A stretch of DNA of 50,306 nucleotides from Nannocystaceae bacterium (GTDB taxonomy: Bacteria; Myxococcota_A; Polyangia; Nannocystales; Nannocystaceae): contig JAWKRA010000004.1 in the NCBI GenBank assembly GCA_041389865.1, positions 1-50,306 on the forward strand, written 5' to 3'. Below the pieces are notes generated by a model that saw only the letters and a program-made list of their open reading frames with translations, was not told where the DNA came from and made no database searches. The stretch's first letter is position 1. Each line of letters opens with the position of its first letter. Positions 12,820 to 46,758 of the stretch are shown one piece after another. The position numbers and the translations under genes are program-made.

Positions 12820-16676
<3,857 letters not shown>

Positions 16677-20654: not shown

Positions 20655-20763
20655 CCTGACACCGTACCTAACTTTGGCGTGCTCGAATGAAGTGAGGCCG
20701 CGTGAAGTGAATCACGTACCGCGATGAGGTGTAATGATCAGGGACTTCGCTCGTTGAGAGCGT

Positions 20764-23647: not shown

Positions 23648-25664
<2,017 letters not shown>

Positions 25665-25668
<4 letters not shown>

Positions 25669-26891: not shown

Positions 26892-27151
26892 ACGCTCTCA
26901 GCGTCGTTGTTGCAATCAGCGTCTTTACCGCGGGTATCACCATAGCGATTGGTGGCTACGGCCCGTCACGTGGGGAAGGAGAGGCGCTGGCGCGGGCGTT
27001 GGACGCCATCGCGCGCCAACCTGACGAGGCCGATCGCATCAGCCGAACGCTATTCGTCGGAATGGCGATGGTCGAGTCCACGGCGATCTACGCGCTGGTC
27101 ATATCGCTGATCCTGCTGTTCGCCAATCCCTTGCTCGAGCTCGTCCGGTGA
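26888..27151 (+). CDS. atpE: F-type ATPase subunit c (Na+-binding-type helix 2)
   Basis: Loop ARQPD, helix 2 VESTAIYALVISLILLFANP with the ESTxxY Na+-ligand set, as in Ilyobacter c-subunits. Confidence 0.75.
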   Translation: MNALSVVVAISVFTAGITIAIGGYGPSRGEGEALARALDAIARQPDEADRISRTLFVGMAMVESTAIYALVISLILLFANPLLELVR

Positions 27152-27867
27152 ACGTCTACCTGCCGACGGTCTTGTTTCAGAGCATCAATTTCTTGGTGCT
27201 CGTGGTCATCCTGTGGAGGCTGCTGTTTCGACCTCTTCGCGTTCACATGCAAGGGCGCGCCCAGAGGATCGCGGACGGCCTGGTCGCGGTCGAGACGGGA
27301 CAGCGAGAGATCGCTACGATGCGGGAAGAGGTGCAAATGGAGCTCGAGCGGGCAGGTGCGTCTAGGGAGGAGACGCTGCGAGCCGCGCGGGCGCAGGGCG
27401 AAGCGGAGCGCCACCTGCTGCTTGAGAACGCACGCGCGGCTGCACGGGCGGAGCGAGATCGCCTGCTGTCGACAGTCGCAGATAAACAGACCCAGCGCGA
27501 GGCGGAGTTCCTTCGATCGCTTACGCCGCAGCTCCAGACGTTGGTGGCGAGAATCATCGATGAGCTCGCTGACGCTGCGAGCTTTCACCGCGTCAGCTGT
27601 GAGCGCTTCGCGGTGTTCCTGTCCGAGCTGCCCCCAGCCCTGTGCGCCGAGCTCGCAGCCGAGACGAGCGAATCGATCGAGCTCGTCGTTGCCCGCGAGC
27701 CGATCCCCGAGGTGCTGCGCCTGGCGGTGGCGCGGCTCTCTATGGTGCCAACGGTGACACGGGTCGACCCCGACCTGCTGGCCGGCGCCAAGTTGATCGC
27801 CGGTGAAATGGTGCTTGACGGCAGCGTACGCGGTCAGATAGCGCGTACGATTGGAGATGTATCTTGA
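27148..27867 (+). CDS. atpF: F-type ATPase subunit b (C-terminal region delta-like)
   Basis: N-terminal TM helix, long Ala/Arg/Glu-rich coiled coil. The C-terminus (LLAGAKLIAGEMVLDGSVRGQIARTIG) resembles a delta/OSCP C-terminus. Confidence 0.65.
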   Translation: MNVYLPTVLFQSINFLVLVVILWRLLFRPLRVHMQGRAQRIADGLVAVETGQREIATMREEVQMELERAGASREETLRAARAQGEAERHLLLENARAAARAERDRLLSTVADKQTQREAEFLRSLTPQLQTLVARIIDELADAASFHRVSCERFAVFLSELPPALCAELAAETSESIELVVAREPIPEVLRLAVARLSMVPTVTRVDPDLLAGAKLIAGEMVLDGSVRGQIARTIGDVS

Positions 27868-29369: not shown

Positions 29370-30292
29370 TGGAACAGGCCGCGCTGGAGCGAAAGCTGGG
29401 TAACGCCAAGGCGCTGCGTGACATCATGGTGACCATGCGCTCGCTCTCGGCAGCTCAGCTGCGCCGTGGCCAGGCCGCGCTCGAGGCGATTCGGCAGTAC
29501 GAAGAGACGATCTGCCGCGGTCTACTGCGATCGCGCTATGAGCCGCCTTCGCGCACGACACCGGATCGCGTACTGATCATCGTCCTCGGAAGCGATCAGG
29601 GTATGTGCGGCGGACTGACGCAACGCCTCGTAGATCGCGCCATACTCCGTATCGAGAGACACTCCGCCGTGACCCGTATCCTGGCTGTCGCCGGGCGACG
29701 TGCTCAAGCGTATCTCGAGGCGAGAGGACAGAGGGTCGACTATCGATACGAAAGCGCTGTCTCTGTCCGCGGTGTAGACGCGGTCGTCGAAGCGTTGGCC
29801 GAGCATATCGAGAAGGAGCTGCCAGGTGGTCCCTGCTGTCGCGTAGAGGTCGTATACACCCGTCAATCCGGCGAGTATGGAGGTTCGGCCAGCGCGCTGT
29901 GCATCTACCCCCCGCAGCCGAGAATCCCTGACGGCGCGGTGCTTCCTCGCTTCGATCCCCAGAGCTACGAGCTGCTCGCGGACGTGTTGGCCGCATCGCT
30001 GCCGGAGTGGAGCTACGCCGCACTGTATCGCTGCGCGCTCGAGTCGTTAGCCGCCGAGCACGAGGCGAGGATGCGGACGACGGACGCAGGCGTCCATACG
30101 CTCGATCGCCGCCTCGACGAGCTCCGCCTCAGCCTTAATCACTTGCGGCAGGAGTCCATCACCAATGAAATCCAGGAGTTGGTCGCAGGCGCCGGGAAAT
30201 CAATACTCAGCCGCCAGCGGGATCCTCGTACCGACGCTCAAATAATGAGGCTTCGGCATCCGCGCGAATCATCAGAACCCCGTGAGTCTTGA
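29366..30292 (+). CDS. atpG: F-type ATPase gamma subunit
   Basis: N-terminal coiled coil (LRDIMVTMRSLSAAQLRRGQAALEAIRQYEETI) and C-terminal helix (ESITNEIQELVAGA). Confidence 0.7.
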   Translation: MMEQAALERKLGNAKALRDIMVTMRSLSAAQLRRGQAALEAIRQYEETICRGLLRSRYEPPSRTTPDRVLIIVLGSDQGMCGGLTQRLVDRAILRIERHSAVTRILAVAGRRAQAYLEARGQRVDYRYESAVSVRGVDAVVEALAEHIEKELPGGPCCRVEVVYTRQSGEYGGSASALCIYPPQPRIPDGAVLPRFDPQSYELLADVLAASLPEWSYAALYRCALESLAAEHEARMRTTDAGVHTLDRRLDELRLSLNHLRQESITNEIQELVAGAGKSILSRQRDPRTDAQIMRLRHPRESSEPRES

Positions 30293-30550
30293 TCGATGCG
30301 AGCGTCCATGGACAGCACAACGCGCCCCCACGCATCTCAAAACCATCGCGCGCCGGAACCGTCGAGCATGCGGCGAATCCGCCACAGATCAAAGCGCCTA
30401 CGGAAACGCTGTACTCAGGTCGAGACGGCGTCTGGCGGCTCAGGACGCGCCCATGGGGGTCGTGACAAATCCCCTGACGAAGGGAATTTTCTCGATTCAC
30501 ACTTCACGACCCTTCCGATTGACGGGCGCCAGCACACTGTTCTCTGGCGA

Positions 30551-30567
30551 TTGGCACGCCAATTGCT
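30551..30567 (+). promoter_or_regulatory. sigma-54 (RpoN) -24/-12 promoter: TTGGCACG-N4-TTGCT
   Basis: Exact match to the TGGCAC-N5-TTGC(A/T) consensus. It lies in a lower-GC 300-bp intergenic region about 100 bp upstream of the DUF2933 gene. Confidence 0.45.
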
Positions 30568-30666
30568 CGACCTAGACCGACTTGGACGCTGGGCCAAGAG
30601 ATGAACGAGCACGAGCGACGAATTCGGTCGCTTCGGACGACCCCGAGCCTTTCAGGGAGATACCCA

Positions 30667-30915
30667 ATGGATGAACACTCGACGAAGTTCCGTCTCAGGC
30701 TCCCCGTATGGCTTGGAGCGTGCGCGTTCTTGGTCATTGCGGTGTTCCTCCTCTGGGGAGAGCACGAGGCCCACATACGCGGCGCGCTCCCGTATCTGGT
30801 GCTCCTGGCCTGTCCGGTGATCCATATTCTCATGCACGGCAGTCACCGAGGACGCGGTCACTCCGATGGCGACCGCGGGCACTGCGATCCCAAGGAGAAG
30901 GGAGGTCCGCGATGA
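30667..30915 (+). CDS. DUF2933-family small membrane protein with His-rich tail
   Basis: TM helices plus HILMHGSHRGRGHSDGDRGHC. Start taken at MDEHSTKF. Confidence 0.5.
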   Translation: MDEHSTKFRLRLPVWLGACAFLVIAVFLLWGEHEAHIRGALPYLVLLACPVIHILMHGSHRGRGHSDGDRGHCDPKEKGGPR

Positions 30916-31571
30916 ATCACGCGCACGGTGCCCCGGCCTACGGCCTCTGGGGTTTGGTCCTCATCAATTCAGCAGTGTTCATCATCTTCGCCTTCAGCTT
31001 CTTCAAGCCGAGGACGAAGCGCGACTGGCGGACCTTCGGATCGTTCTCCGGGTTTATCATCGCGCTCTTCGTCGAGATGTACGGATTCCCGCTGACGATC
31101 TACCTGCTCTCCGGTTGGCTGCAGAGCAAGCTCCCAGGTGTCGACCTCCTCTCGCACGACGCCGGGCACCTCTGGTACGCGCTCCTTGGGCTCAAGGGCG
31201 ATCCCCACACGAGCCCGATTCACCTCGCGGCCAACCTCCTCATTGTAGCAGGCTTCATCGGCCTCTCGGCGTCGTGGAAGGTGCTCTGGTCGGCCCAGCG
31301 TGAAGGCCGTCTGGCAACGACCGGCACCTACGCTTACGTACGCCACCCGCAGTATATCGCCTTCATCGCCATCATGCTCGGCTTCCTGGTGATGTGGCCT
31401 ACACTGATCTCGCTGCTGATGTTCCCTGTGTTGGCGTTCATGTACATTCGCCTCGCGCGTCGTGAGGAGCAAGAGGTGGCTGCCGAGTTCCCGAGCATCT
31501 GGCCCGAGTACGCGGCCCGAACTCCACGCTGGATCCCGCGCCTCGCTGGGCGCCGGTTCGCGTCCCGATGA
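30912..31571 (+). CDS. isoprenylcysteine carboxyl methyltransferase-family membrane protein (CzcN-like)
   Basis: Multi-TM with ICMT/PEMT C-terminal signature YVRHPQY...E. ATGA overlap with the DUF2933 gene. Confidence 0.65.
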   Translation: MNHAHGAPAYGLWGLVLINSAVFIIFAFSFFKPRTKRDWRTFGSFSGFIIALFVEMYGFPLTIYLLSGWLQSKLPGVDLLSHDAGHLWYALLGLKGDPHTSPIHLAANLLIVAGFIGLSASWKVLWSAQREGRLATTGTYAYVRHPQYIAFIAIMLGFLVMWPTLISLLMFPVLAFMYIRLARREEQEVAAEFPSIWPEYAARTPRWIPRLAGRRFASR

Positions 31572-33304: not shown

Positions 33305-34438
33305 TTGCTTCGGATCGGAGTCGCCATGGAAGCACTTCAAGGTGAGCGCGCGCGCACGAATCGTCGCCCTGTCATTGTGGTCGGGGGCTACGGGCAGGTC
33401 GGCCGACGAATCGCGCGGGGCTTGATCGACTGCGCGCGTGAAGTCGTCGTCGCCGGGAGGAGCGAGCGGCGCAGCCGACGAGCGGCGCACGAGTTGGGGT
33501 GTCGCGGCGCGACCCTCGACGTTGGCGAGCCGGGCACATGGGCATCCGCAGTCGGCGTCGCCGGAGCGGTCGTCGTGTGCGTCGATCAGACCGACGACGC
33601 GTTCGCGCGCTGGGTGCTGGAGCGCGGCGTCGACTATATCGACATCACCGCAGGGGACGCGTTCCTCCGCAAGGTCGAGCGACTCGACCCGATCGCGCGG
33701 GGGGCTGGATCGACAGCGCTGCTTTCTGTAGGCCTCGCGCCCGGAGTCACCAACCTGCTCGTCAAGGATTGCGTTGACAGGCTGGACTCCGCCGAGCACG
33801 CCCGCATCGCCCTGCTCCTTGGCGTGGGCGAGCGGCACGGTGACGCGGGCATTGAGTGGACGCTCGATCAGCTCGCGCGTGTTTCGCCGATCGCGTCGCT
33901 CGTCCCGGTTCGCTATCCTGGGAGCGCGGCGTCAACCGTAGCGGTGCCCCTCGAGATCGCCGACCAACACGTCGTCTTGCGTACGCAGCAGCTGCGGTCC
34001 GCTGAGACAGTCGTGACCCTCGAATCGTCGCGCTGGACGCGGGTCGCGGTGGCGCTCGGCCCGTCGCTGCGTTGGTCGTCCGTCCGCGCGCTCGTCCGCT
34101 ATCTCCTCCCGCGCGTTCGCCTGGGTTCGGAGCGATGCGCCGTCGTGGTTGAGGTCCGCGGCGCGCTCGCAAGCGCGCCGCATGTGACTCGCGGCGGCTT
34201 CGTGGGCGCACGAGAGGTGGAGGTGACGGCGCGTGTCGCCGCGAAGATCACAGACGCGCTCGCCGAGCGCCGGCGTCCGGGTGTGTTCCACATCGATCAG
34301 TTGTTCGACCTGAAGGACATCCGAGCCCACGTCGACGGACGGTGGGAGTTCAGCGATCGCGCGTCATCGACCCTCGGGCCCGAAGTGTCACCGCGCTGGG
34401 GTCGATCCCGATCGAGCACAACGACTGCTGGGTCGTGA
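33305..34438 (+). CDS. saccharopine-dehydrogenase-like NAD(P)-binding protein
   Basis: Rossmann motif VVGGYGQVGRRIARGL, followed by the Sacchrp_dh-like C-domain. Confidence 0.6.
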   Translation: MLRIGVAMEALQGERARTNRRPVIVVGGYGQVGRRIARGLIDCAREVVVAGRSERRSRRAAHELGCRGATLDVGEPGTWASAVGVAGAVVVCVDQTDDAFARWVLERGVDYIDITAGDAFLRKVERLDPIARGAGSTALLSVGLAPGVTNLLVKDCVDRLDSAEHARIALLLGVGERHGDAGIEWTLDQLARVSPIASLVPVRYPGSAASTVAVPLEIADQHVVLRTQQLRSAETVVTLESSRWTRVAVALGPSLRWSSVRALVRYLLPRVRLGSERCAVVVEVRGALASAPHVTRGGFVGAREVEVTARVAAKITDALAERRRPGVFHIDQLFDLKDIRAHVDGRWEFSDRASSTLGPEVSPRWGRSRSSTTTAGS

Positions 34439-34466
34439 CGCGCGAGGCCGACGCGCCTCGTCGGCG

Positions 34467-35846
34467 TCAACGCGTACGAGCGGCCGAGGGCAGTCGACCC
34501 CCGACCCAGTACTCGAGCTGCGCGCGCGCGATCCAGTAGTCGCGCAGCGCCTCGGCGTACTCCTGCTGCGCGTGGACCTGCTCCGAGCGGGTCGAGAAGA
34601 GCTCGTACGCGCCGACCAGCATGCCGTTGTACTCGCGGAGGGTCTGCTCGTAGATCTGCTCGTGCCGCGGGAGGACGGCGGTCCGCATGTAGTCGACGCG
34701 ACGCCGGGCAGCGACGAGCGCCGCGCGACCCTCTCGCATCTGCGAGCGCGCGACGATGGCCGCGTGCTGGTAGAGGTGCTGCGCCTGACGAAGCTGCGCG
34801 CGCAGCTTGGCGAGGTCGGCGTGCCCAGGATCGAAGAGCGGCAGCTCGACTTGCAGGGACGGGCCGACGACCCACTCGTGACCGATGTCATCGCCCACCT
34901 CGTTGCGCCCTTCGACGCCCACGTCGATGTTCGGAACGATCCCCCGCCGCCGCAGCGCGAGCGCGTAGTCCACCGCGTCGACGTGAAACCGCGCCGCCGA
35001 CACGTCGAGCCGCTCGCGGATCCCGTGCTGCTCGAGCGCCGAAAGGTCGCCGTCGGCGGGCATCTCGGGGGACGCGGCCGCCATCGTCCAGCGCGTGTCA
35101 TCGCCCCAGAGCCCCATCAAGCGGTTGATCTGCTCGCGCGCGCTGACGACTTCGAGCTCGCGCTCGAGCAGCGTCATGCGGGCCTCGTCGAGGGCTGCTG
35201 CGACCTCGGCTCGCTGCAGCGGGCTGATGTTCCCGGCCTCGCGCTGCCGCGTCGCCAGCTCGTCGGCGACCTCGGCCGCCTGCACCCGCTCGCGCTGCAG
35301 ACGCGCGACCGTGACGGCCGCGGCCAGCTCGGCGTAGGCGACCTTGACGTCGCGGACCAACGTGAGCGCCTCGCCGCCGACGGTGAGGATCGTGCGCTGG
35401 AGCGCGGCCTTGGCCACGCGCCGCTTGGCGGGGATCAGGAACACGCTCAGGAGGCTCTGGGAGAGGGACACCCCGCCGCCGAGGCCGTTTCCGCGGGTCG
35501 AGATCAGCAGGTCTCCGCCGATCGTGGGGTTTTGCAGCAAGCCGGCCTGCACCAAGTCCGACTGCGCGACGCCGAGCTCCTCCATGGTCGCAAGCAGGCC
35601 GCGGTTGTTGATCACAGCGATGCGCAGGGCTGCCTCGAGGGTCAGGGGCTCGGCCAGGAGCGTCTCTACGCGCGCGCGCACCTCCGCGTGGCTGCGGGCC
35701 TCGGCCGCGACAGCGTCGTCGATGCCAGCGCGCTCCTCGAGCACCGCGGAGACCTCGGCGGCCGCCGCCGTGGGTCGGGTCGTCGCGCAGCCCGAGAGCG
35801 CGAGCGCGAGCGCGGCGATCGTCGTCTTGAGGAAGGCTCGCATCAC
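34467..35846 (-). CDS. TolC-family outer-membrane efflux lipoprotein
   Basis: Lipobox ALSGC. Two OEP repeats with conserved LTLEAALRIAVINNRGL... pattern. Confidence 0.75.
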   Translation of the reverse strand: MMRAFLKTTIAALALALSGCATTRPTAAAAEVSAVLEERAGIDDAVAAEARSHAEVRARVETLLAEPLTLEAALRIAVINNRGLLATMEELGVAQSDLVQAGLLQNPTIGGDLLISTRGNGLGGGVSLSQSLLSVFLIPAKRRVAKAALQRTILTVGGEALTLVRDVKVAYAELAAAVTVARLQRERVQAAEVADELATRQREAGNISPLQRAEVAAALDEARMTLLERELEVVSAREQINRLMGLWGDDTRWTMAAASPEMPADGDLSALEQHGIRERLDVSAARFHVDAVDYALALRRRGIVPNIDVGVEGRNEVGDDIGHEWVVGPSLQVELPLFDPGHADLAKLRAQLRQAQHLYQHAAIVARSQMREGRAALVAARRRVDYMRTAVLPRHEQIYEQTLREYNGMLVGAYELFSTRSEQVHAQQEYAEALRDYWIARAQLEYWVGGRLPSAARTR

Positions 35847-36160
35847 TGCCCTCCCTTCGGCGCGCCGTGACCCGCGTGCTCGTCCGTGGTCGTCGCGTCG
35901 GCGGCGGGCTTCGTGGCGTCACGTTCGGCGGCTCCGTGACCGCCGTGATGGTGGTGGCCGTGACCCGCGTGGCCGCCTTCGTCGAGCGCGACCCCCTCGA
36001 ACGCCGAGCGCTCGGTCGGATCGGGACCTGGCTGCCACGCGCTCGCTGGTGCGTCGGGGTTGCCGGCGTCGCGCTCGGGCGGCAGCGGCTCGAGGCCAGG
36101 CGCGCGGCACCCAGCTACAAGGATCACCATCAGCAGCAACACTCTACAGAAGGATGCCAT
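35843..36160 (-). CDS. small His-rich lipoprotein (putative periplasmic metal-binding)
   Basis: Lipobox LVAGC, then HAGHGHHHHGGHG and HAGHG clusters. ATGA-type overlaps with both neighbours. Confidence 0.5.
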   Translation of the reverse strand: MASFCRVLLLMVILVAGCRAPGLEPLPPERDAGNPDAPASAWQPGPDPTERSAFEGVALDEGGHAGHGHHHHGGHGAAERDATKPAADATTTDEHAGHGAPKGGQ

Positions 36161-37496
36161 CTCGCCTCAATTCCTCGGTCGTCGCCGCGACCGCTTGGGT
36201 GCCCTTGGGGTTTACGTACCAGCCCGGATCGCCGTCGCCGGTGAGATCGTCGCGAACCTTCAGAATCGTGAACATCCCGCCCATGGTGATGGCGTCGTGG
36301 GGGCCGCGCGCGCCGACCATGGGGATCGAGTTGGCCGGGACCTTCATGCCCATGCTCCCCATCTCGCCCATGCCCTCGTGCCCCATGGTCATGTACCCGG
36401 GCGCGACCCGGCCGGCGCGACGATCGAGGTCACCAGGCTTGACGCCGATGAGGTTGGGCAAGTCGTGGCCCATCTGGTTCATGACGTGGTGGGTCATGTG
36501 GCAGTGCATCGCCCAGTCGCCCGGCGCGTCGGCGACGAACTCGACGTCGCGCGTGGACCCGACGGGCACTAACACGGTGGTCTCGGGCCACTGCGCGGGC
36601 GCGGGGATCGTGCCGCCGTCGGTGGCCACCACCTTGAAGTAGTAGCCGTGGAGGTGAATCGGGTGGTGATCCATGGCGCTCAGGTTGCCGAAGCGCAGGC
36701 GCACGCGCTCGCCGGTCTTCACCACCAGCGGCGCGGTGCCGGGGAACGCCCGCGCGTTGAAGGTGAGGACGTTGAAGTCCGACATCTCGTTGGGATCGGG
36801 GCGACGGGTCCCCGGCGCGATCTTCCACTCGCTGAGCATGAGCACGAAGTCGCGATCGACGGCGTAGCCGGCCGGCGGGCGACGGGGGTGGACGACGATC
36901 ATCCCCATCATGCCCATCGCCATCTGCGTCATCTCGTCGTGGTGCGAGTGGTACATGAAGGTGCCGGACTGGCGGAAGGTCCACTCGTAGCGGAACGTCT
37001 CGCCCGGGGCGATCGTGCGTTGATTGAGGCCGCCGACGCCGTCCATGCCGTTGGGCAAGAACACGCCGTGCCAGTGCACCGTGGTGGGCGCTGGCAGGCG
37101 ATTGGTCACGTACACGCGCACGCGGTCGCCCTCGACGGCCTCGATGGTCGGCCCGTGCACGCGGCCGTTGTAGCCCCAGCAGCGCGCCTCGAGCCCCGGC
37201 GCGAAGGTGTGCTCCACCTCCTCTGCGATCAGGTGGTAGACCTTGACGCCGTCGACGATCTTCCACTCGAGGGTCGCGCCGTCGGGAGTGATTGTGGGGC
37301 GGTAGTGGGTGCCGGGGAGACCGGGCGTCTGCGACGAGCCCTCGCCGCTGTAGCTGCGCTCCCACCGACGCGCGCCGCCGGGCGCGGCCTCGGCCGATCG
37401 CGCTGCGAGGAGGGTTGCGCCGCCAGCGAGCGCGGCGCCAGAGAGCAGCGCCGCACGACGGCCGAAGCGACTCGGGGAGTCGTTGCCATTCGTCAT
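36144..37496 (-). CDS. multicopper oxidase, Tat-exported (CueO/CopA-like)
   Basis: Twin-arginine leader SRFGRRAALLSGAALAGG. Copper sites HWHG, HSHHDE, HCHMTHHVMNQM. Met-rich segment MTMGHEGMGEMGSMGMK. Confidence 0.8.
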   Translation of the reverse strand: MTNGNDSPSRFGRRAALLSGAALAGGATLLAARSAEAAPGGARRWERSYSGEGSSQTPGLPGTHYRPTITPDGATLEWKIVDGVKVYHLIAEEVEHTFAPGLEARCWGYNGRVHGPTIEAVEGDRVRVYVTNRLPAPTTVHWHGVFLPNGMDGVGGLNQRTIAPGETFRYEWTFRQSGTFMYHSHHDEMTQMAMGMMGMIVVHPRRPPAGYAVDRDFVLMLSEWKIAPGTRRPDPNEMSDFNVLTFNARAFPGTAPLVVKTGERVRLRFGNLSAMDHHPIHLHGYYFKVVATDGGTIPAPAQWPETTVLVPVGSTRDVEFVADAPGDWAMHCHMTHHVMNQMGHDLPNLIGVKPGDLDRRAGRVAPGYMTMGHEGMGEMGSMGMKVPANSIPMVGARGPHDAITMGGMFTILKVRDDLTGDGDPGWYVNPKGTQAVAATTEELRRDGILL

Positions 37497-37742
37497 ACTC
37501 GTGGTTGATATCTACAGTCGGTTCGTCGCGCAATCGGATCGACGCTCGTCCCTCGAGTGCGCGTGCTCTCGCGGCTCCCGACGCGCGCTTCGATCCTTCC
37601 GCGTCCGCGGCGCGATCGAGGGAGTCGTCGAATTCGCGGCCCTGAGACCCCGTGGCGGTCGATCTCTACGACCCGCCGTTGCCCGAGATCGGGGGTGTAA
37701 TGCCCGGCGGGGTCGTCCGTCAGCCCGGGTGAGGAGCGACCC

Positions 37743-40145
37743 ATGCCCAGAGACACCCATCGTTGTTGCAGCCACGGCGCGCACCATCACACCGACGAAG
37801 CTGACCGTTGTCATCACGACTCGAGCCATCACCACCACGGCCACGTCGCGTTGGATCCGGTCTGCGGGATGACGGTCGAGGTCGACGCGGACACGCCGAC
37901 GCACGTCCACGAGGGGCGCACCCACTCCTTCTGCAGCGTCCGCTGCCGAGAGACGTTTCGCCGCGACCCCGCGCGCTACACCAGCGCCGCTCCGGCCACG
38001 CCCGCGCCGCCCGCTGATCCAGCGCAGGAGTACACCTGCCCGATGCACCCTGAGGTCGTGCAGCTCGGCCCGGGGAGCTGTCCCAAGTGCGGCATGGCCC
38101 TCGAGCCACGAGTCATCTCGTTGACGACGACGGAGGCGCCGGACCCCGAGCTCGTCGACCTGTCCCGGCGCCTGCTCGTCAGCCTCGCGCTCACCCTGCC
38201 GGTGTTTGCGATCGCCATGTCCGAGATGATCCCAGGGCTCGCGCTCGCCGAGCTGCTGCCCGCGCGGATCGTGACGTGGACGCAGCTGCTGTTGGCGACC
38301 CCGGTGGTGCTCTACGGCGGCTGGCCGTTCTTCCAGCGCGGCTGGGCTTCGCTGCGCTCGCGCCACCTCAACATGTTCACGCTCATCGCCCTGGGCACCG
38401 GCGCCGCCTATCTCTACAGCCTGGTCGCCGCGCTCGCGCCGGGGCTGTTCCCCGTGAGCATGCGCGGCCACCACGGCGAGGTCGGCGTGTACTTCGAGGC
38501 CGCGGCCGTGATCACCACGCTCGTGCTGGTCGGCCAGGTGCTCGAGCTCAAGGCCCGCGGTCGCACGTCGAGCGCGCTGCGAGCGTTGCTCGGTCTCGCG
38601 CCGCCGACCGCTCGCGTGCTCCGGAGCGGCGGCGTCGAGGAGGACGCCCCGCTCGCCGACGTCGTCCCCGGTGATCGGCTGCGCGTTCGGCCAGGTGAGA
38701 AGGTGCCCGTGGACGGGGTCATCGAGGAGGGCAGGAGCCACGTCGACGAGTCCATGATCACCGGCGAGCCGCTCCCCGTGGCCCGCGCTCCCGGGGATCG
38801 GGTCACGGGCGGCACCGTGAACGGGGCTGGCGGCTTTGTCATGCGCGCCGATCGAGTCGGGTCCGACACACTGCTCGCCCAGATCGTGCGCATGGTCGGC
38901 GAGGCGCAGCGCAGCCGCGCCCCGATCCAGCGCCTCGCCGATCAGGTCGCCGCTTGGTTTGTCCCGGTCGTGATCGCGATCGCGGCCCTCAGCTTCCTCG
39001 CTTGGCTGCTCCTGGGCCCTGCGCCAGCCGTAACCTACGCCCTGATCAGCGCGGTCGCAGTGCTGATCATCGCCTGCCCCTGCGCGCTCGGCCTGGCGAC
39101 GCCCATGTCGATCATGGTGGGGACCGGGCGCGGAGCCGCGGCCGGCGTGTTGATCAAGGACGCCGCGGCCCTCGAGACGCTCGAGAAGATCGACACCCTG
39201 GTGGTGGATAAGACCGGCACGTTGACCGAGGGCAAGCCGCGGCTCGTCTCGATCGTGCGCGCGCCGGGGTTGGACGAGGAGGAGCTTCTGAGCCTCGCCT
39301 CGAGCCTCGAGCAGGCCAGCGAGCACCCGCTGGGCGCGGCGATCGTCGCGGCCGCCGGCGCGCGGGGGTTGGCGCTGGCGGGCGTGGGCGAGTTCGCCTC
39401 GCGCACCGGGATGGGCGTCACCGGAGTCGTCGACGGACGCATGGTTGCGATCGGCAACCGCAGGCTCTTGCACGAGATCGGCGTCGACCCGCGCGCCCTC
39501 GAAGACGACGCCGATCGCCTGCGCGCGTCCGGGGAGACCGCGATGTACGTGTGCGTCGACGGGCGAGCAGCCGGAGTCTTCGGGGTCGCCGATCCGATCA
39601 AGGCCTCGACCCCCGAGGCGCTCGCCCGCCTGCGCGAGGACGGTGTGCGCGTCGTGATGCTCACCGGGGACAGCCGCGCCACCGCCCTGGCTGTGGCCCG
39701 CACCCTCCGCATCGACGAGGTCCACGCCGAGATCCTGCCCGAAGGGAAAGGTGCGTTGATCGCCCGTTTGCAAGCCGAGGGCCGCCGGGTCGCCATGGCC
39801 GGCGACGGCGTCAACGATGCCCCAGCGCTGGCCCGCGCCGACGTGGGAATCGCCATGGGCACCGGCACGGACGTGGCCATGGAGAGCGCCGGCGTGACGC
39901 TCGTCAAGGGCGACCTCCGGGGGATCGCGCGGGCCCGTCGCCTGTCTCGCGCCACCATGCGCAACATCCGACAGAACCTCTTCTTCGCCTTCGCCTACAA
40001 CGTCCTCGGCGTGCCGATCGCCGCCGGGGCCCTCTACCCGATCTTCGGCCTGCTGCTCTCGCCGATGATCGCCAGCGCGGCCATGAGCGCGAGCTCGGTG
40101 TCGGTGATCGCCAACGCGCTGCGCCTGCGTCGGCTGGCGCTGTAG
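37743..40145 (+). CDS. copA: copper-translocating P1B-type ATPase with His-rich + YHS/TRASH-like + HMBD N-terminal domains
   Basis: N-terminus [24 protein letters not shown]; DPVCGMTVE...[10 protein letters not shown]; [26 protein letters not shown] metal site [27 protein letters not shown]. Confidence 0.85.
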
Positions 40146-40277
40146 TCATCGGTCGTAGACTGATTGGTCCTCGCGCTCGCGCCTCCTCGGCGCGAGCGCG
40201 TCCGTTTTGTTGGCGCCCGAGTCGGCCGCCTCACGTAGAATGGCCGACACGAGCTCGCTGCAGCATTGAGGAGATCA

Positions 40278-40840
40278 TGAGCGCGTCCGCAACCTCCGAT
40301 GTCGCCCAGGTGCTGGTCGAGAACCATCGCCACTTCCTCCGCTTCCTCGAGCGGCGGGTCGCCACGCGCGAGGCCGCCGAGGACATCCTGCAGTCGGCGC
40401 TCGCCCGCGGGATCGAGCGCAGCGGGGAGCTGCGCGATGAGGAACGCAGCGTCGCGTGGTTCTACCGGCTCCTGCGCAACGCGCTCATCGACCACTATCG
40501 CCACCAGGACGCCGAGCGTCGGGCGCTCTCACGCCACCTGGCCGAAGAGGTGGCCCGTGGCGACGCGGACCTGGCGCTCGAGCAAGCCGTCTGTCAGTGC
40601 TTTAGGGCGCTGGTGGACACGCTGACTCCGGCGTACGCCGACGTCCTCCGCGCCGTCGACCTCGGCGAGGTCTCGATCGCCGACTATGCGGCGGGTGCGG
40701 CCATCACCGCCAACAACGCCCGAGTCCGCCTGCACCGCGCGCGCGCGGCCCTGCGCAAGAGCCTCGAGCGCATGTGCGGCACTTGTACGACGCACGGGTG
40801 CCTCGACTGCTCGTGCAAGTCCGCGTGTAGCTCGACGTGA
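40278..40840 (+). CDS. ECF sigma-70 factor with C-terminal cysteine-rich domain (CorE-like)
   Basis: Sigma-2 and sigma-4 regions, a linker CQC, and a tail CGTCTTHGCLDCSCKSAC. Sits between the Cu-ATPase and a multicopper oxidase. Confidence 0.75.
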
Positions 40841-41046
40841 GTTGGTGGCCCGACCTCGGCGGGTTCGCTACCGGCTCCGATAGTGTCGCCGACGAGCCCG
40901 CGGCCGGGCGAGCGTTGGCGCCGACGAGGGTCCCCTTGGCACCCCCTCCGGAGTATCGCCGTTTACCCCGGGGAGAGACCGGATCCTTCAACACCCCCCG
41001 CTTCGGCCCGCGCTCGGATACGCTATTCGATTGGGAGACACCCACC

Positions 41047-42459
41047 ATGAACGCCCGTCGGATCGCCTTTCTGATGAGCTCGATCGTCGTCGCCTGCGGA
41101 GACGTCGACGGAGCCGAGGCGCCGATCGAAGCTCCGATCGGCGCGCGGCCGCTCATCGACGTCGACCCCGCCGCGGATCGCATTGAGGTGAGCCTCGTCG
41201 CCGGGCCCGCGAAGTGGACCTACCTGCCGGGGAAGGCCGCCGCCGATGTGTGGGCCTATCGAGACGACAACGACCCCGCGGATTTGGGGCAAATCCCGGG
41301 CCCCGCGATCGTCGGCCGCGTCGGCGATCACGTCACCGTCCACTTCCGCAGCGAACTCCCCGAGCCGACCACGATCCACTGGCACGGCCTGCGGGTCGCC
41401 GCCAGCCACGACGGCAGCAACGTCTCTCAGTCGCCCGTCGAGCCGGGCGGCGCGTTCACCTACGAGTTCACGCTGACCGACGCAGGGACCTTTTGGTTCC
41501 ACCCGCACCTCGACGGGGATGTCCAGATCGAGCGTGGCCTCTACGCGCCCATCATCGTCCGCGGCGACGACGAGGTCGGGGCCGACGCGGATCGTCTGCT
41601 GGTCCTTGACGACGTGAAGCTCGAGTCCACCGGCGCGCTCTCGACGACGATCACCTCGCTTGATCTGATGGTCGGCCGCCAGGGGAACGTGCTCCTCGTC
41701 AACGGCGCTCGTCAGCCGCGCCTCGACGCTGCCGTCGGGGCACGCGAGCGTTGGCGCCTCCTCAACACGGCCAACGGGACATACTTCAACGTCGCCCTCC
41801 CAGGGCGCTCACTTCGCGTCATCGCCTGGGACGGCGGGCTGCTGCCCGAGCCCTATGAGGCGGACTCGCTGCTAATCGCGCCCGGCGAACGCTACGAGCT
41901 CCTCGTCGATCTCGACGGCGTCGAGGGAGATGAGATCGAGCTGCGGACGCTCCACTACGATCGTGGCCACGAGCTCCCGGATCTCGGCCCTCGCACGCTC
42001 GCCACCTTCGTCCTCGGCCCGCCGCCGACCCATCCTCGGCCGGACGCGCCCGCGCGCTGGGGGACCGTCGCGCCGCTCCCGGACACCGCGACGCGTCGGG
42101 AATTCGTCCTCCGCGAGGAGGAGCCAGCCGATCCGAGCGCCGAGCCCCGCTTCTATATCAACGACGAGGCTTTTCCGCTGACGACGCCCGTCATCAGCAA
42201 CCAGGGCGATCTCGAGATCTGGGAGCTCCGCAACGACGCCGAGATGGACCACCCCTTCCACCTCCACGGCACCTTCTTCCAGGTCCTGGACGCCCCCCAC
42301 CTCGGTTGGAAGGACACCGTCAACGTGCCGATGAAGTCGACCGTACGCTTCGCGGTGCGGCTCGATAACCCCGGAGAGTGGATGTTTCACTGCCACATCC
42401 TCGAGCACGCCGAGCGCGGCATGATGGGCGTGCTCCACGTGCTCGAGGCTTCACCATGA
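41047..42459 (+). CDS. multicopper oxidase lipoprotein (three cupredoxin domains)
   Basis: Lipobox VVACG. HWHG, HPHLDGD, HLHGTFFQV, HCHILEHAERGMMG. Confidence 0.75.
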   Translation: MNARRIAFLMSSIVVACGDVDGAEAPIEAPIGARPLIDVDPAADRIEVSLVAGPAKWTYLPGKAAADVWAYRDDNDPADLGQIPGPAIVGRVGDHVTVHFRSELPEPTTIHWHGLRVAASHDGSNVSQSPVEPGGAFTYEFTLTDAGTFWFHPHLDGDVQIERGLYAPIIVRGDDEVGADADRLLVLDDVKLESTGALSTTITSLDLMVGRQGNVLLVNGARQPRLDAAVGARERWRLLNTANGTYFNVALPGRSLRVIAWDGGLLPEPYEADSLLIAPGERYELLVDLDGVEGDEIELRTLHYDRGHELPDLGPRTLATFVLGPPPTHPRPDAPARWGTVAPLPDTATRREFVLREEEPADPSAEPRFYINDEAFPLTTPVISNQGDLEIWELRNDAEMDHPFHLHGTFFQVLDAPHLGWKDTVNVPMKSTVRFAVRLDNPGEWMFHCHILEHAERGMMGVLHVLEASP

Positions 42460-42908
42460 GGAACCCCATGCACAGACACGTCACGATCATGCTCCTGCTC
42501 GCGCTATCCACCACCAGCTGCGGAGACGACGGGACGGGCAGCGCGAGCGAGAATTCGACCGCCGTGATGACAACCGACGTTGCGACGTCAACCACCGACG
42601 GCGGCACCGAGACGGAGAGCACGAGCGACGCCGTCCTCCCGCCTGCAGCGCCCACGGACCTCAAGGCCAGCATCCTCGAGGGCGGCGTGCACCTCACGTG
42701 GAAGGACGTTGCCGAGGATGAGGACAACTACATCATCGAGAACAAGGTCGAGGGTGGCGAGTTCACGCTGGTCATCGAGCTCCCCTTCGACTCGGTGACG
42801 TACCACGACACCGGCGTGACGGCCGCGACCAGCTACACGTACCGCGTCAAGGCGGTCAACGCTGGCGGCGAGGCCGCGTCGAGCGAGGTGGTAGTCGCGG
42901 TGCCCTGA
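42456..42908 (+). CDS. lipoprotein with fibronectin type III domain
   Basis: Lipobox TTSCG, Thr/Ser-rich linker, FN3 pattern PAAPTDL...VHLTW...YIIE...YHDTGVTAATSYTYRVKAVNAGG. Confidence 0.5.
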   Translation: MRNPMHRHVTIMLLLALSTTSCGDDGTGSASENSTAVMTTDVATSTTDGGTETESTSDAVLPPAAPTDLKASILEGGVHLTWKDVAEDEDNYIIENKVEGGEFTLVIELPFDSVTYHDTGVTAATSYTYRVKAVNAGGEAASSEVVVAVP

Positions 42909-43034
42909 GCGACGCTGCGAGCCCACCAGCCGCCGGGCGCAAGCGAGCGCGCATCGAGGTCGACGTCACGCTCGTCCGGTCGCACGCGACGAAGGGGCCA
43001 GAACCAAGCGGCGTCTCCTGTAGACTCTCCTCCT

Positions 43035-44150
43035 GTGCTCGACACGAGGCTCGGCGCGAAAGCGGCAGCTGCCTGGCTCGCAGCCGTGCTCGTCTGCGGC
43101 TGTGCCGAATCGCCGCGCGAGCACACGCTGCGGATCTGGGGCGAGGCCTACGTCGAGGAGGAGATCCCAGCCGCCGACGTGATCGACGGCTGGTCGATCG
43201 TCTTCGACGAATTCCTGGTCGCCGTCGGCGAGATCCACGTCGTCGCGGACGGGGGCGTCGTCGATCTTCCGGGCTGGTACGCCTTCGATTTGACGGTCCC
43301 CTCCGGCGGCGCGGGCTTCGAGGTCGCCGCGTTTGAAGCGACAGGCGAGCTGCAGCGGGTGGACTACCGGCTCGGGCGGCCCGGCGAGATCATCGGCGGC
43401 AACGCGACGCCGGAGCAGGCCGCCCGCCTCGTCGCCGACAGGACCACGCTCTCCGTTCGAGGTCACGCGACCCGAAGCGACGAGGTGTACACATTCGCCT
43501 GGGACTTCGCCCTCGAGCTCGGCTCGCGCTGCGCGCTTGGCCAGGCGATCGCCACACCCGGCGATGATGGGCCGGTGATCACGATACACGCCGATCACCT
43601 GCTCCTTGACGATCTCGAGCTCGCCCCCGACATCGCCTTTGACGCGATCGCGGAGGCCGACGCCGACGGCGACTACACAGTCACCCGGGAGGAGCTCGCC
43701 AACGTCGACATCAGCGCGTTCCCGCGCTACCAGTCTGGCTCCTATGGAATCCCAGACCTCTGGAACTACATCGGCCACCTCGCGGGGACCCTGGGGCACA
43801 TCGACGGCGAGGGCGGGTGCGATCCCGAGTATGTCCCGGACGACTACCGCGCCCTCGAACCCCCGTCACACGGGGAGCACGCTCCCGCGCTCTTCGAGGC
43901 TCATTGCGCCGCATGTCATGGCTCGGACGGTCAAGGAGCAGGTCCTCTAGGACAGGTTTCGTGGCCGACGGCGTCGGACCTGACGCGGCTGCCACCGTCC
44001 GCCCTCGACCAGCGCTACCTCTACTTTCGCATCCTCGAGGGCGGCGCGTTCTTCCCCTACAATTCGGCGATGCCGGCGTTCGAGAGCCTGATTACCGAGG
44101 ACGAGGCCTGGGAGCTCGTCGCGCATGTGCATGCATTGAACGCCGGGTAG
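43035..44150 (+). CDS. lipoprotein with C-terminal mono-haem cytochrome c domain
   Basis: Lipobox LVCGCA. Haem-binding CAACH followed by a distal Met region (PYNSAMPAF). Confidence 0.55.
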   Translation: MLDTRLGAKAAAAWLAAVLVCGCAESPREHTLRIWGEAYVEEEIPAADVIDGWSIVFDEFLVAVGEIHVVADGGVVDLPGWYAFDLTVPSGGAGFEVAAFEATGELQRVDYRLGRPGEIIGGNATPEQAARLVADRTTLSVRGHATRSDEVYTFAWDFALELGSRCALGQAIATPGDDGPVITIHADHLLLDDLELAPDIAFDAIAEADADGDYTVTREELANVDISAFPRYQSGSYGIPDLWNYIGHLAGTLGHIDGEGGCDPEYVPDDYRALEPPSHGEHAPALFEAHCAACHGSDGQGAGPLGQVSWPTASDLTRLPPSALDQRYLYFRILEGGAFFPYNSAMPAFESLITEDEAWELVAHVHALNAG

Positions 44151-44264
44151 CGCGTAAGTCTCAAACTGCACCCGCGAGCCCGGTGCGGCGAGCACAGGTG
44201 CTTCGGCCGCGAAAGCGGACGTCCATTCACGATGGGCGTTCGTCCGTGACTCCTCGCGTCGCGC

Positions 44265-45080
44265 TCAATCGACCGCGAAGCTGTAGGACGCCCAAAAGCT
44301 CTCCCAGTCCGTGTGCGTGCACTCGTCGCATGGCCGCAGGTGAACGAGGCGCACGAGCCACACGCCGGGGTCGGTGAGCTCGATCCGCGCGACGCCGCGG
44401 CGATTCGTGCGTGCTCGTGCCGTACGCACGCCGCCGCCGGGTAGTCGCACATGCGCCGTCACGGGCGCCCGGGGGAGCGGTGCGCCCTCGAGGAGGACCT
44501 GAACCCGTAGCTTGTCGCCCCGCGCGGCGGCGTATGGATCGTCGAGGAGGACGATTTCGATCGGATGCCCGAGCACGACATCGTGGACCGGCGCGCGATT
44601 CGAGGCAGTGGTCGTCAAGGCCTTGATCGACCGCATGTAGCACTCCCGCTCCTGCGCTCGGTGACCCCTTCGCGCGCGCAGCTCGATGATCTCAGTGAGC
44701 CCCTCGTGCTCGAGGTAGTGGGTGAAGCGGTCGTCGGGGAGCTTGATGTCGACCCAGCGTCGCTCCATCGCCCACATGGCCTGGCCCGTCGCGCCGGTCG
44801 GGTAGCCGTCGAGCACGGGCGGGTCGCCAGCCGCACGCGCGCGCATTAGATCGACGATCCCGTCGGCGGTCACGAGCTCGAAGCGTCGAGTCCTCTCCGG
44901 TTGAAAACCCCGGCGCTCGGCGGCCACGAAGTCGTCGCCGACGCGTAGCTCGAGGGTGATCTTGGCGCGTGCGTCCGGGGTGTAGTCCGACGCCTCGAGC
45001 CAGTAATCGTGGGCCTTGATCGCACGAGGTGTCAACAAGAGCAGCGCCGCAGTGACCGCGAGTGATACCCGTCGAATCAT
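44265..45080 (-). CDS. DUF4198-family periplasmic protein
   Basis: Signal peptide then AHDYWLE N-terminal motif typical of DUF4198. Confidence 0.5.
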   Translation of the reverse strand: MIRRVSLAVTAALLLLTPRAIKAHDYWLEASDYTPDARAKITLELRVGDDFVAAERRGFQPERTRRFELVTADGIVDLMRARAAGDPPVLDGYPTGATGQAMWAMERRWVDIKLPDDRFTHYLEHEGLTEIIELRARRGHRAQERECYMRSIKALTTTASNRAPVHDVVLGHPIEIVLLDDPYAAARGDKLRVQVLLEGAPLPRAPVTAHVRLPGGGVRTARARTNRRGVARIELTDPGVWLVRLVHLRPCDECTHTDWESFWASYSFAVD

Positions 45081-45206
45081 GGGCGCGACTCTATAACTAC
45101 CCGCGATAAGACTTCAAGAGTCGTCGCTATACGACTGTACCCGAGCGCGGTTATTGGTGATAGCAACTCGCGGAGGGAGACGTCACGACGCGGGGCCAAC
45201 CTCGAC

Positions 45207-45569
45207 CTACGTAGCCAAGAACACGTGGACGCCACCGGTCCGGCGATCCTGTAGGGCCCAGAGCCGCCCCTCATCGATCCAGAGTTCGGCGATCCGCTCG
45301 ACGTCGACGAAGGGCAGGACCCAGTCGGGGAGCTCGAGCTCCTCCGCGAGCTCGCGTTCGACGTACGCACTCACGGAGCTGTGGACCCCGCACCAGACCT
45401 CGAGCGCCGCGAAGATCGCCGCGGCGTCATCACCGAAGTGGCGTCTCAACGCGTTGCGTGCCCTCGTCTGCGGTCGACCCGATGTCATCTCGCGCCCCCC
45501 GAGCAACTGGGCGCCCGCACGTCCGTATGCGGGCACCCCCGATCGACGCGCACGTCCGTGTGCGCCCAC
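45207..45569 (-). CDS. hypothetical protein (the start may be the internal Met at 45488)
   Basis: A conserved-looking C-terminal region (ELELPDWVLPFVDVERIAELWIDEGRLWALQD) with high GC3. No family assigned. Confidence 0.35.
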   Translation of the reverse strand: MGAHGRARRSGVPAYGRAGAQLLGGREMTSGRPQTRARNALRRHFGDDAAAIFAALEVWCGVHSSVSAYVERELAEELELPDWVLPFVDVERIAELWIDEGRLWALQDRRTGGVHVFLAT

Positions 45570-45587
45570 GAGCCACTGCGCCAGCTC

Positions 45588-46283
45588 CTACTCATCCGCG
45601 CCCCGTAGTGCTTCCGCCAGCCCGATCAGCTCGTGCGGTCCGAGCTCGGGCGCCGGCAGCCGTCGGTACAGCAACGACGCCTGCGGGATCGGGGGATCCT
45701 CGTCGTGTGCCCGCCGCGGAGTGTCATGTCCGGGAGGACAGTCGAAAACACCGAGCTCCAACCACGCCGGCCCGACCTCGCTGCAGGAGCAGGGGTTGCT
45801 CCGCGCGTAGTGAGCACAGCGCGGGGCCAGGAAGCCCTCGACGTTTCTGCGCGCGCGGGCAAGGCGAACTCGGTACGCGCCCTCCTCGATCTCGAGCATC
45901 GCGGCCGCCTGCGCCGGGTCGAAGCCCAGCACGTCGGTCAAGACGAACGCGACGCGGAGCGAGCCGCTCAGGCAGCCGAGGACGCGAGCGAAGCAGGTCC
46001 GTTTGGCCTCCCAGGCGAGCGACTCGATCGCCGCGATCGCTACCGTGATCTTCGGGCGTTGGCGGAGATCGTCGTCGAGGATCGAGAAGGTCGTGGTTCT
46101 GCGCTGCTCCTTCGCCACCGTTCGCGCCATCGCGGCGATGAGCGTCGAGAAGCGGGCGCCGCTGCGGGCTCGCGCTGCGGACCGGACGACGGCGCTCACG
46201 AGCTCGAGCGCCTCGGCCCTCGATCCTGTAAAGAGGAAGGCGCACCGGTGCAGGTCGCGGACGACGACGCGAAGGTCAGCCAT
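45588..46283 (-). CDS. ECF-like sigma factor with ~75-aa Cys-containing C-terminal extension
   Basis: Weak sigma-2 (LHRCAFLFTGSRAEALELVSAVV), clear sigma-4 (RVAFVLTDVLGFDPAQAAAMLEIEEGAYRVRLARARRNV), tail CAHYARSNPCSCSE...FDCPPGHD. Confidence 0.5.
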   Translation of the reverse strand: MADLRVVVRDLHRCAFLFTGSRAEALELVSAVVRSAARARSGARFSTLIAAMARTVAKEQRRTTTFSILDDDLRQRPKITVAIAAIESLAWEAKRTCFARVLGCLSGSLRVAFVLTDVLGFDPAQAAAMLEIEEGAYRVRLARARRNVEGFLAPRCAHYARSNPCSCSEVGPAWLELGVFDCPPGHDTPRRAHDEDPPIPQASLLYRRLPAPELGPHELIGLAEALRGADE

Positions 46284-46758
46284 GATCGCCTCCGAGCGCA
46301 GGCGATGAGCGCTGCACGAACGCGAGCGCTCCCTCGGGCACGAAATCGACGGGGAGCGCACCGGCGGGGACTTCGGCGACGGCCTGGGCTTGATACCCGC
46401 GCTCGGTCTCGAAGATCAGCAGGGTCCGACTCGCGTTGCGGAAGAACAGCGCGAAGCGGAAGCAGAACCAGCCGTCGCCGGTCTCGGCGTCGAGCAGGTC
46501 GGCCGCTTCGGCGAGGATGTTGCGACGGGGATCGTCGTCGTCCTCGAGCTCGCCGTGGGTGGCGCCATCCCAGGGGATGAGGCACGGGCGACCCTGGACG
46601 TCCTGGACCGCGTAGCAGGCTCCGCGCGCAGTCGTGTAGGTGACGACCGCGCCGTGCCGTCGAAACCCGGGCTCGGCAGGCGGACGTTCGTTGGCCGCCT
46701 CGCCGCTGCGCAGCCACACGAGGTGCGGGCTGCCAGGACCGACGACCGTGGCGGTCAC
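46276..46758 (-). CDS. hypothetical protein (acidic, no TM) at the head of a three-gene minus-strand cassette
   Basis: High-GC3 ORF overlapping the downstream sigma gene by 8 nt. No recognisable motif. Confidence 0.4.
   Translation of the reverse strand: MTATVVGPGSPHLVWLRSGEAANERPPAEPGFRRHGAVVTYTTARGACYAVQDVQGRPCLIPWDGATHGELEDDDDPRRNILAEAADLLDAETGDGWFCFRFALFFRNASRTLLIFETERGYQAQAVAEVPAGALPVDFVPEGALAFVQRSSPALGGDHG

Follow-up and report, generated by a model that had tools for sequence, protein, structure and literature searches.

The 50,306-nucleotide stretch of DNA analysed here (the window) comes from contig JAWKRA010000004.1 of a Nannocystaceae bacterium (GenBank assembly GCA_041389865.1). 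According to the open reading frame (ORF) listing and to Pfam and NCBIfam profile searches, it carries at 34467-44150 a copper-resistance gene cluster, with three genes on the minus strand and five on the plus strand (Table 1). An earlier note, made from the letters alone, had listed these genes and named their domains, all of which is borne out, and had centred the cluster on a CorE-like sigma factor of the extracytoplasmic function (ECF) type. The best explanation of the locus, which we consider likely, is that a CorE-type sensor would be wired to the promoter of the copper ATPase gene, the other operons having no recognisable CorE-type promoter. The locus is an ordinary new member of the CorE system from Nannocystaceae, and its biology is expected rather than surprising. 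The predicted regulatory picture is narrower than the one proposed earlier, the ATPase gene being the only clear target.

Table 1. Genes of the copper-resistance cluster and predicted regulatory elements
Feature	Position	Strand	Basis
OEP/TolC/NodT-like outer-membrane efflux lipoprotein, 459 aa	34467..35846	-	PF02321 OEP E=3.9e-32
His-rich lipoprotein, 105 aa, with HAGHGHHHHGGHG and HAGHG	35843..36160	-	ORF; overlaps both neighbours
Two-domain CuoB-type multicopper oxidase, 450 aa	36144..37496	-	Cu-oxidase_3 + Cu-oxidase_2
Divergent intergenic region, 246 bp	37497..37742	.	Promoter motif recognisable on plus-strand (ATPase) side only
Predicted CorE-family promoter of ATPase gene	37696..37721	+	-35 TGTAAT 37696-37701, 16-nt spacer, -10 CGTC 37718-37721
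Copper-exporting P1B-1 ATPase, 800 aa	37743..40145	+	TIGR01511 598.5 bits (cut-off 397)
Intrinsic-terminator-like hairpin between ATPase and sigma genes	40172..40210	+	12-bp stem (11 G-C), 5-nt loop, then U-tract UCCGUUUUGUU
CorE-like ECF sigma factor, 187 aa	40277..40840	+	Sigma70_r2 + r4_2
Three-domain multicopper oxidase lipoprotein (CueO/CuoA-like), 470 aa	41047..42459	+	Cu-oxidase_3, Cu-oxidase, Cu-oxidase_2; lipobox IVVAC
fn3-domain protein, lipoprotein-like signal	42456..42908	+	PF00041 E=1.2e-7; start overlaps oxidase stop by 4 nt
Lipoprotein, ~370 aa, with C-terminal mono-haem cytochrome c domain (CAACH)	43035..44150	+	PF13442 + PF00034, residues 285-368

Architecture and conservation of the sigma factor

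As expected of a group 4 sigma factor, the protein has no domains besides sigma-2 and sigma-4.2; the matches to PF04542 and PF08281 are above the gathering scores, and TIGR02937 scores 54.1 bits, compared to a cut-off of 42.9. Its best NCBIfam match is SigZ, at 88 bits, which is below the SigZ cut-off of 169-212 bits, and its best match in PDB is SigW (E=2e-4). An identical protein (100%) is encoded in a Nannocystaceae metagenome-assembled genome. The start at 40278 proposed in the earlier note is out of frame, the ORF being 40277-40840; the C-terminus quoted there, CGTCTTHGCLDCSCKSAC, and the linker CQC are exact. The CxC motif of the linker is C106-Q-C108, and the C-terminal Cys-rich domain (CRD), SLERMCGTCTTHGCLDCSCKSAC, follows the pattern CGTCxxHGCLDCxC, with residues C167, C170, T171, H173, C175, C178 and C180, plus a non-conserved C184.

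We aligned the 119 closest database homologues, which were picked without regard to any motif. C106, C108, C167, C170, H173, C175, C178 and C180 are invariant in the alignment (119 of 119), as had been expected earlier for the CRD Cys residues of a CorE-like protein. Position 171, which is Thr in the window protein, is Ala in 88 homologues, Thr in 30, Ser in one and never Cys. The best NCBIfam relative, SigZ, belongs together with CorE2 to ECF238 (Casas-Pastor et al., PMC7826278), into which ECF44 was merged; according to reviews, the CxC-bearing former ECF44 members are a distinct subset of ECF238.

The CxC motif is essential in both CorE and CorE2, and the residue at CorE A185 / CorE2 C174 sets the specificity for Cu versus Cd/Zn (PMC4937300). 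Four CRD Cys residues are invariant in the family (CorE 181, 184, 192 and 194). C189 is the main activating residue of CorE (PMC3107203), and the Cys equivalent to CorE C189 / CorE2 C178 is essential and typical of delta-proteobacterial and acidobacterial members (PMC4937300, PMC3107203). A copper-specific, CorE-type sensor is expected to be activated by Cu(II) and inactivated by Cu(I), with copper-dependent DNA binding, as addressed by reporter and electrophoretic mobility shift assays in PMC3107203. For the comparison, the CRD of CorE was rebuilt from published site-directed-mutagenesis primers, giving QLEVSCGTCASHGCLDCTCATQG...AGGCGSAKA; a peptide query for the full CorE sequence returned seven short fragments, none of which is CorE. 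The Cys spacing of the two domains is identical (C-x2-C-x4-C-x2-C-x-C), and the residues C167, C170, T171, C175, C178 and C180 of the window protein correspond to CorE C181, C184, A185, C189, C192 and C194, respectively.

The gene upstream of the sigma gene encodes the ATPase and the one downstream a multicopper oxidase, and no protein with an anti-sigma-like domain adjoins it; there is no ORF in the flanking gaps of 131 nt and 206 nt, though small or novel anti-sigma factors may be encoded elsewhere. The CorE architecture suggested earlier thus stands, with the CxC linker, the CorE Cys spacing, no adjoining anti-sigma-like protein and metal genes around. All sequence-level marks of membership are present, and by these marks the protein is a member of the CorE-like (ECF44/ECF238) family. 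It is most probably of the CorE (copper) type rather than the CorE2 (Cd/Zn) type, because the specificity residue is Thr and is never Cys in the homologues.

A protein that is CorE-like in fold might nevertheless sense Zn/Cd, Ag or the thiol redox state. CorE itself responds weakly to Cd and Zn (PMC3107203), and a single-residue change shifts specificity (PMC4937300). The window protein has Thr rather than Ala at the specificity position, as well as the extra C184, and its closest relatives by sequence, P0002 and P0004, are found in unrelated, non-metal contexts. However, there is no Cys at the position equivalent to CorE2 C174, the predicted target encodes a CPC-type P1B-1 Cu(I) ATPase, and copper ATPases are the dominant neighbours across the family; we regard a non-copper signal as distinctly unlikely.

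A candidate promoter motif in related loci and in the window

A scan of species-representative genomes yielded 80 related loci, whose encoded relatives are 50-60% identical to the sigma factor and which span Myxococcota, Acidobacteriota, Gemmatimonadota, Planctomycetota, Nitrospirota and others. A copper ATPase gene adjoins the sigma gene in 43 of these loci, in several phyla. The pair of an outer-membrane protein (OMP) and a CuoB-type oxidase is present in about a dozen loci, and CusBA-type pumps are frequent. Upstream of the 43 ATPase genes, strand-asymmetric counts of 6-mers picked out TGTAAG, which 36 sequences have on the sense strand and one on the reverse strand. In the first set of sites, defined as TGTAAG followed by a nearby CGT, all 37 ATPase sites had one spacing, TGTAAG-N16-CGT[C/T]. 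The pattern TGTAA[G/T]-N16-CGT[C/T] gave 86 sites in 71 of the 80 loci, compared to 1.4 in Markov shuffles. It was found upstream of 39 of the 43 linked ATPase genes within the scanned span, with three more just outside this span, and it also precedes sigma genes or the genes just upstream of them, OMP/oxidase operons, and unidentified genes. The columns outside the search pattern are conserved too, and the motif is shared from Myxococcota to Acidobacteriota, Gemmatimonadota and Planctomycetota. Such a layout is typical of the -35 and -10 elements of ECF promoters.

In the window, the predicted promoter of the ATPase gene ends 21 nt before the start codon (ATG at 37743), which is preceded by the ribosome-binding site GAGGAG at 37732-37737. 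When the window was scanned with a position weight matrix (PWM) of the core motif, this site scored 25.7 bits, compared to a null maximum of 11.4 +/- 2.2 and to 19.5 bits as the highest of 100 simulations. Many myxobacterial loci share the conserved ATPase leader CAGCCCGGGTGA(A/G)AGGAG. The divergent region has only short, weak inverted repeats; an imperfect one at 37710-37742, whose 16-nt arms are 75% complementary, runs across the predicted -10 element and on through the 5' leader and the ribosome-binding site.

The other upstream regions of the cluster are different in this respect. The best PWM scores were -6.1 bits on the oxidase side of the divergent region (minus strand, 37497-37742), -8.2 bits in 40841-41046, -0.6 bits in 40146-40276 and -7.7 bits in 42909-43034. 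A relaxed search for AA[CGT]-N15-18-CGT gave no site ahead of the oxidase operon, the sigma gene or the second oxidase gene; the one loose match, which precedes the cytochrome c gene and is without TGTAA, is not credible. The earlier note had pointed to the divergent region as the candidate for the regulated promoters. Its coordinates were right, its length is 246 bp rather than 245 bp, and the proposal is supported for the ATPase side and not for the oxidase side; the shared motif sought upstream of 41047 has no comparable counterpart there in either the PWM or the relaxed scan.

These scores bear on a broader role, in which the sigma factor would be the master regulator of the whole 10-kb cluster, i.e., of both divergent operons and the second oxidase operon. 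In M. xanthus, copB and copA are under the control of CorE, and so is cuoB, through a promoter that precedes the OMP gene (PMC3107203); motif copies precede OMP/CuoB-type operons or form divergent pairs in L033, L036, L054 and L057. In several relatives, the oxidase operons are either co-transcribed with the ATPase gene or have a motif copy of their own, and the window is an exception. With scores of -0.6 to -8.2 bits in its other upstream regions, versus 25.7 at the ATPase site, and no credible further site in the relaxed searches, we consider control of the whole cluster unlikely.

It should be noted that a weak copy of the motif, TGTAAT-N16-CGTT, is present at 20730-20755 on the plus strand, with a score of 10.2 bits, a value inside the null range. 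It directly precedes an ORF for a 156-aa membrane protein (20764-21234, no Pfam match), which is followed by an ATC_hydrolase-family gene (21344-21997), and at this distance the mRNA would have almost no leader. The 80 related loci have no homologue of this membrane protein.

Gene content, transcription units and the surrounding window

The ATPase has E1-E2_ATPase, Hydrolase, HMBD and YHS domains and a His-rich N-terminus. The P1B-1 signature comprises CPC in transmembrane helix 6, YN(x4)P in helix 7, M(xx)SS in helix 8, DKTGT and N-terminal metal-binding domains; in the window protein the signature is complete (CPC445, DKTGT489, YNVLGVP752 and MSASS781). Both oxidases have all four His copper motifs (HxH, HxH, HxH, HCH) and Cu-oxidase Pfam domains above threshold, and both fall short of the NCBIfam equivalog cut-offs for CopA, CueO and laccase. 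In the two-domain oxidase these motifs are HWH 141, HSH 183, HLH 281 and HCH 331, and the protein has a Met-rich C-terminal tail, GYMTMGHEGMGEMGSMGM, with 9% Met in the last 110 aa. Its export by the Tat pathway, as claimed earlier, is consistent with the RR-containing signal SRFGRRAALL; this is a motif-based assignment, and no match to a Tat model was reported. The three-domain oxidase scores 214 bits with the CueO model, under the cut-off. A GTG at 40837, which overlaps the sigma stop codon, was considered as the start of this oxidase and rejected on GC content by codon position (0.64/0.67/0.77 versus 0.73/0.46/0.87 in the gene proper); the 206-nt gap upstream of the gene is devoid of a coding signature in third-position GC.

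Among the remaining products, the outer-membrane lipoprotein has an N-terminal signal that ends in LALSGC, and the His-rich lipoprotein has no match in Pfam or NCBIfam. The NCBI gene call for the fn3 gene starts 12 nt further downstream than 42456. The N-terminal ~280 aa of the cytochrome c lipoprotein have no domain assignment. A cytochrome c domain recurs directly 3' of the OMP/CuoB-type oxidase pair in the acidobacterial loci L033, L062 and L067, which suggests that CuoB-type oxidases and a c-type cytochrome are functionally linked.

The two-domain oxidase is 51-75% identical to the OMP-paired oxidases of CorE-like loci, and relatives of the OEP lipoprotein adjoin CuoB-type oxidases in ~12 such loci. 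When the primers of the CorE paper were compared to all loci, only SeqSDM and LcsBECFK gave informative matches. SeqSDM, which translates to GYMTMGQ and presumably lies in M. xanthus cuoB, matches CuoB-type oxidase homologues, including that of Pyxidicoccus fallax (L057); the probe used in the copB electrophoretic mobility shift assay has no match among the related loci. By these primer matches, L057 is the region orthologous to MXAN_3424-cuoB, and its gene order is His/Gly-rich lipoprotein, OMP, oxidase. Because the primers match the L057 oxidase and L057 shows this order, the minus-strand trio of the window is, on this comparison, the same module as MXAN_3424-cuoB with the gene order permuted.

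The minus-strand trio, with overlaps of 4 and 17 nt between its genes, is plausibly one operon in which the OEP lipoprotein gene is the last. On the plus strand, the consecutive gaps are 131, 206, -4 and 126 nt, and a hairpin that resembles an intrinsic terminator begins 27 nt after the ATPase stop codon. The predicted fold of 40146-40215 has -34.6 kcal/mol (z = -3.6), and none of 200 shuffles was as stable. Because this hairpin separates the ATPase and sigma genes, we infer several transcription units on the plus strand rather than one tight operon. Therefore, the tight structure and the two divergent operons described earlier are tenable for the minus strand and too simple for the plus strand. 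A sigma-70 consensus scan of 34000-46500 gave no matches; a TAGAAT hexamer that precedes the sigma gene is not accompanied by a -35 element at 16-18 nt. A sigma-54 search of the intergenic regions found no site with both GG and GC at the correct spacing.

The earlier note had called the cluster an island, and its resistance genes are indeed compactly grouped, in an order unlike that of relatives, as might follow from horizontal acquisition of a mobile copper-resistance element. However, the GC content of the cluster (0.68-0.73) equals that of most of the window, with no compositional shift at the borders. The only tRNA gene of the window (802-876) is far away, and the flanking ORFs have no integrase or transposase domains. 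A search for direct or inverted repeats gave GC-rich matches at chance level, apart from the homologous segments that encode HxHxH in the two oxidase genes. A mobile origin is very improbable, and the locus can be called a gene cluster but not, on this evidence, a mobile island.

A second CorE-like ECF sigma factor of 210 aa is encoded at 11597-12229 (+), 26 kb upstream, and is 39% identical to the one at 40277. It has the linker CQC and a variant CRD, CGAGAPGRCSDCRC, with the spacing C-x7-C-x2-C-x-C, in which equivalents of CorE C184 (C170 in the 40277 factor) and of the conserved His (H173) are missing. Only one close database relative, P0129 (63%), has this variant CRD. Next to the gene lies a minus-strand operon for a CusCBA-type heavy-metal efflux system of the resistance-nodulation-division (RND) class, with an OEP protein (18734-20467), a CusB-like fusion protein with HMBD and DUF3347 (16683-18737) and an RND pump of 1286 aa (12816-16676). 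A possible small Cys-rich ORF with CCCC (20250-20654, minus strand) precedes this operon, and a gene with an ion-channel domain (potassium-channel-like; 12238-12819, minus strand) follows it, beside the second sigma gene.

This paralogue allows another reading of the ATPase promoter, namely that the motif is recognised by the factor at 11597-12229, or by both factors, the one at 40277 having other or no local targets. The sigma-4 segment ANxxRVRLHRARAA is common to the two proteins, which are 39% identical, and both genes lie within the same 30 kb. However, the motif co-occurs with canonical CGTCxxHGCLDCxC sigma factors in 71 of the 80 loci, and a variant with only one close database relative cannot explain a motif conserved across phyla. 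We consider this reading highly unlikely.

Two further groups of genes were observed. The minus-strand group at 44265-46758 has four ORFs, including those of 160 aa and 120 aa and a DUF4198 periplasmic protein (44265-45080). It also encodes a divergent sigma-like protein (45588-46283, minus strand), in which only sigma-4.2 was detected and which has a C-terminal extension with CAHYARSNPCSC; these genes may form one more metal-related unit under ECF control. An F-type ATP synthase operon at ~23672-31000 (+), with the beta subunit gene first (23672-25264) and the a subunit gene at 26193-26891, lies in the lowest-GC stretch of the window (0.61-0.66); its gene order appears to resemble that of the N-ATPase type.

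Proposed regulation and comparison with known systems

In the reading that we prefer, the sigma factor at 40277-40840 would be a cytoplasmic single-protein metal sensor of the CorE type, whose linker CxC and C-terminal Cys/His cluster would bind a metal, most probably copper by analogy with CorE. Metal binding would switch it to a form that directs RNA polymerase to TGTAA[G/T]-N16-CGT[C/T] promoters. The single clear target in the window would be the P1B-1 copper ATPase promoter, and the direct output would therefore be the export of cytoplasmic Cu(I). The sigma gene itself is probably transcribed alone and not autoregulated, because it lies behind the terminator-like hairpin and is without the motif; it may also share a transcript with the three-domain oxidase, fn3 and cytochrome c genes that follow it. 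Weak or absent autoregulation has been reported for CorE and CorE2 (PMC4937300), which agrees with a motif-free sigma gene. The module of CuoB-type oxidase, His-rich lipoprotein and OMP, together with the second oxidase, would handle periplasmic copper.

Several points weigh against this scheme. Metal binding, copper specificity, the link between sigma factor and promoter, and the transcription units are what we infer from the sequence, and this includes both ties of the sigma factor, to copper and to the ATPase promoter. The published CorE site has an AAC-containing -35 element and a G in a -10 element 16-18 nt away; the motif found here fits the described spacing and differs in its -35 element, TGTAA[G/T] versus AAC, and is a candidate for the CorE element. 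CuoB-type operons of relatives often carry the motif (L033, L054, L057), unlike that of the window. The second CorE-like sigma factor at 11597-12229 could in principle use the same promoter, and the window protein has Thr at the specificity position, compared to Ala in CorE. Finally, CorE was compared by its rebuilt CRD alone, and P0034, which was the closest relative found in M. xanthus, is encoded outside the corE locus; any orthology to CorE itself is therefore putative.

P0034, the best M. xanthus match, has a Cys numbering that fits CorE at an offset of +7, and it was considered as CorE and rejected, because its locus has MbnP/MauG pairs and a Csp gene, not cuoB; the offset merely reflects the conserved CxC-to-CRD spacing. 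The gene for this full-length CorE-like protein (L081, 10001-10615; M. xanthus CP017169.1, 1.16 Mb) lies beside two MbnP/MauG-type pairs and the Csp copper-storage gene, with no TGTAA-N17-CGT motif near it in L081. By its position and the 67-aa fragment P0121, P0034 may correspond to MXAN_0974, which has been described in strain DK1622 as a truncated protein with sigma-4.2 plus CRD.

CorE-type sigma factors are unusual as one-protein metal sensors; to our knowledge, only two have been studied, both from M. xanthus, and no structure has been solved. From the 80 loci compared, a candidate promoter emerges that is sharply defined and suggests that the copper ATPase forms the core of the family regulon, which makes regulon prediction and biosensor design for the CorE-like family straightforward to test. 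A more speculative view, which we find doubtful, is that the window holds two CorE-like sensors with separate tasks: the canonical one wired solely to the cytoplasmic copper pump, the rare variant beside the CusCBA-type envelope pump, and the CuoB-type operon released from CorE control. If so, and if the variant senses another metal or redox state and uses another promoter, this would be a natural re-tuning of the CRD, with the labour of cytoplasmic and envelope efflux divided within one locus.

Among known systems, CorE of M. xanthus (MXAN_3426; ECF44, merged into ECF238) likewise has an ECF core and a linker CxC. It shares with the window protein the CRD pattern C-G-T-C-x-x-H-G-C-L-D-C-x-C, with equivalents of C181, C184, C189, C192 and C194 and a non-Cys residue at the A185 position. 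In both cases no anti-sigma-like protein adjoins, and the neighbouring genes encode a P1B ATPase, a CuoB-type oxidase and an OMP. The differences are a short CRD tail in the window protein (seven residues past the last conserved Cys), with the extra C184 and no equivalent of C206, and the gene order, which is ATPase-sigma with a divergent oxidase/OMP module in the window and OMP-cuoB-corE in M. xanthus; in addition, the oxidase operon of the window has no motif upstream.

CorE2 of M. xanthus (MXAN_5263, Cd/Zn-responsive) is of the same family and also depends on an essential CxC and CRD, and its lack of autoregulation matches the lack of a motif upstream of the sigma gene in the window. However, it has a CC pair, C173-C174, that gives Cd/Zn specificity, compared to C170-T171 here, and it regulates a cation diffusion facilitator transporter, not a P1B ATPase. 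The re-classification puts SigZ of Bacillus subtilis (ECF238 subgroup 9) in one ECF group with the CorE-like factors; according to reviews, former ECF24 members such as SigZ are without the CxC motif and the full CRD, whereas the window protein has both. Unlike M. xanthus copper region 2 (curA operon, CuoA, CopA, MXAN_3414 cytochrome c, CorSR), the cluster has no CorS/CorR two-component system, sigma-54 activator or sigma-54 promoter that we could find. Like that region, it groups a three-domain oxidase, a PF13442 cytochrome c and a copper ATPase, which in the window stand together with a CorE module.

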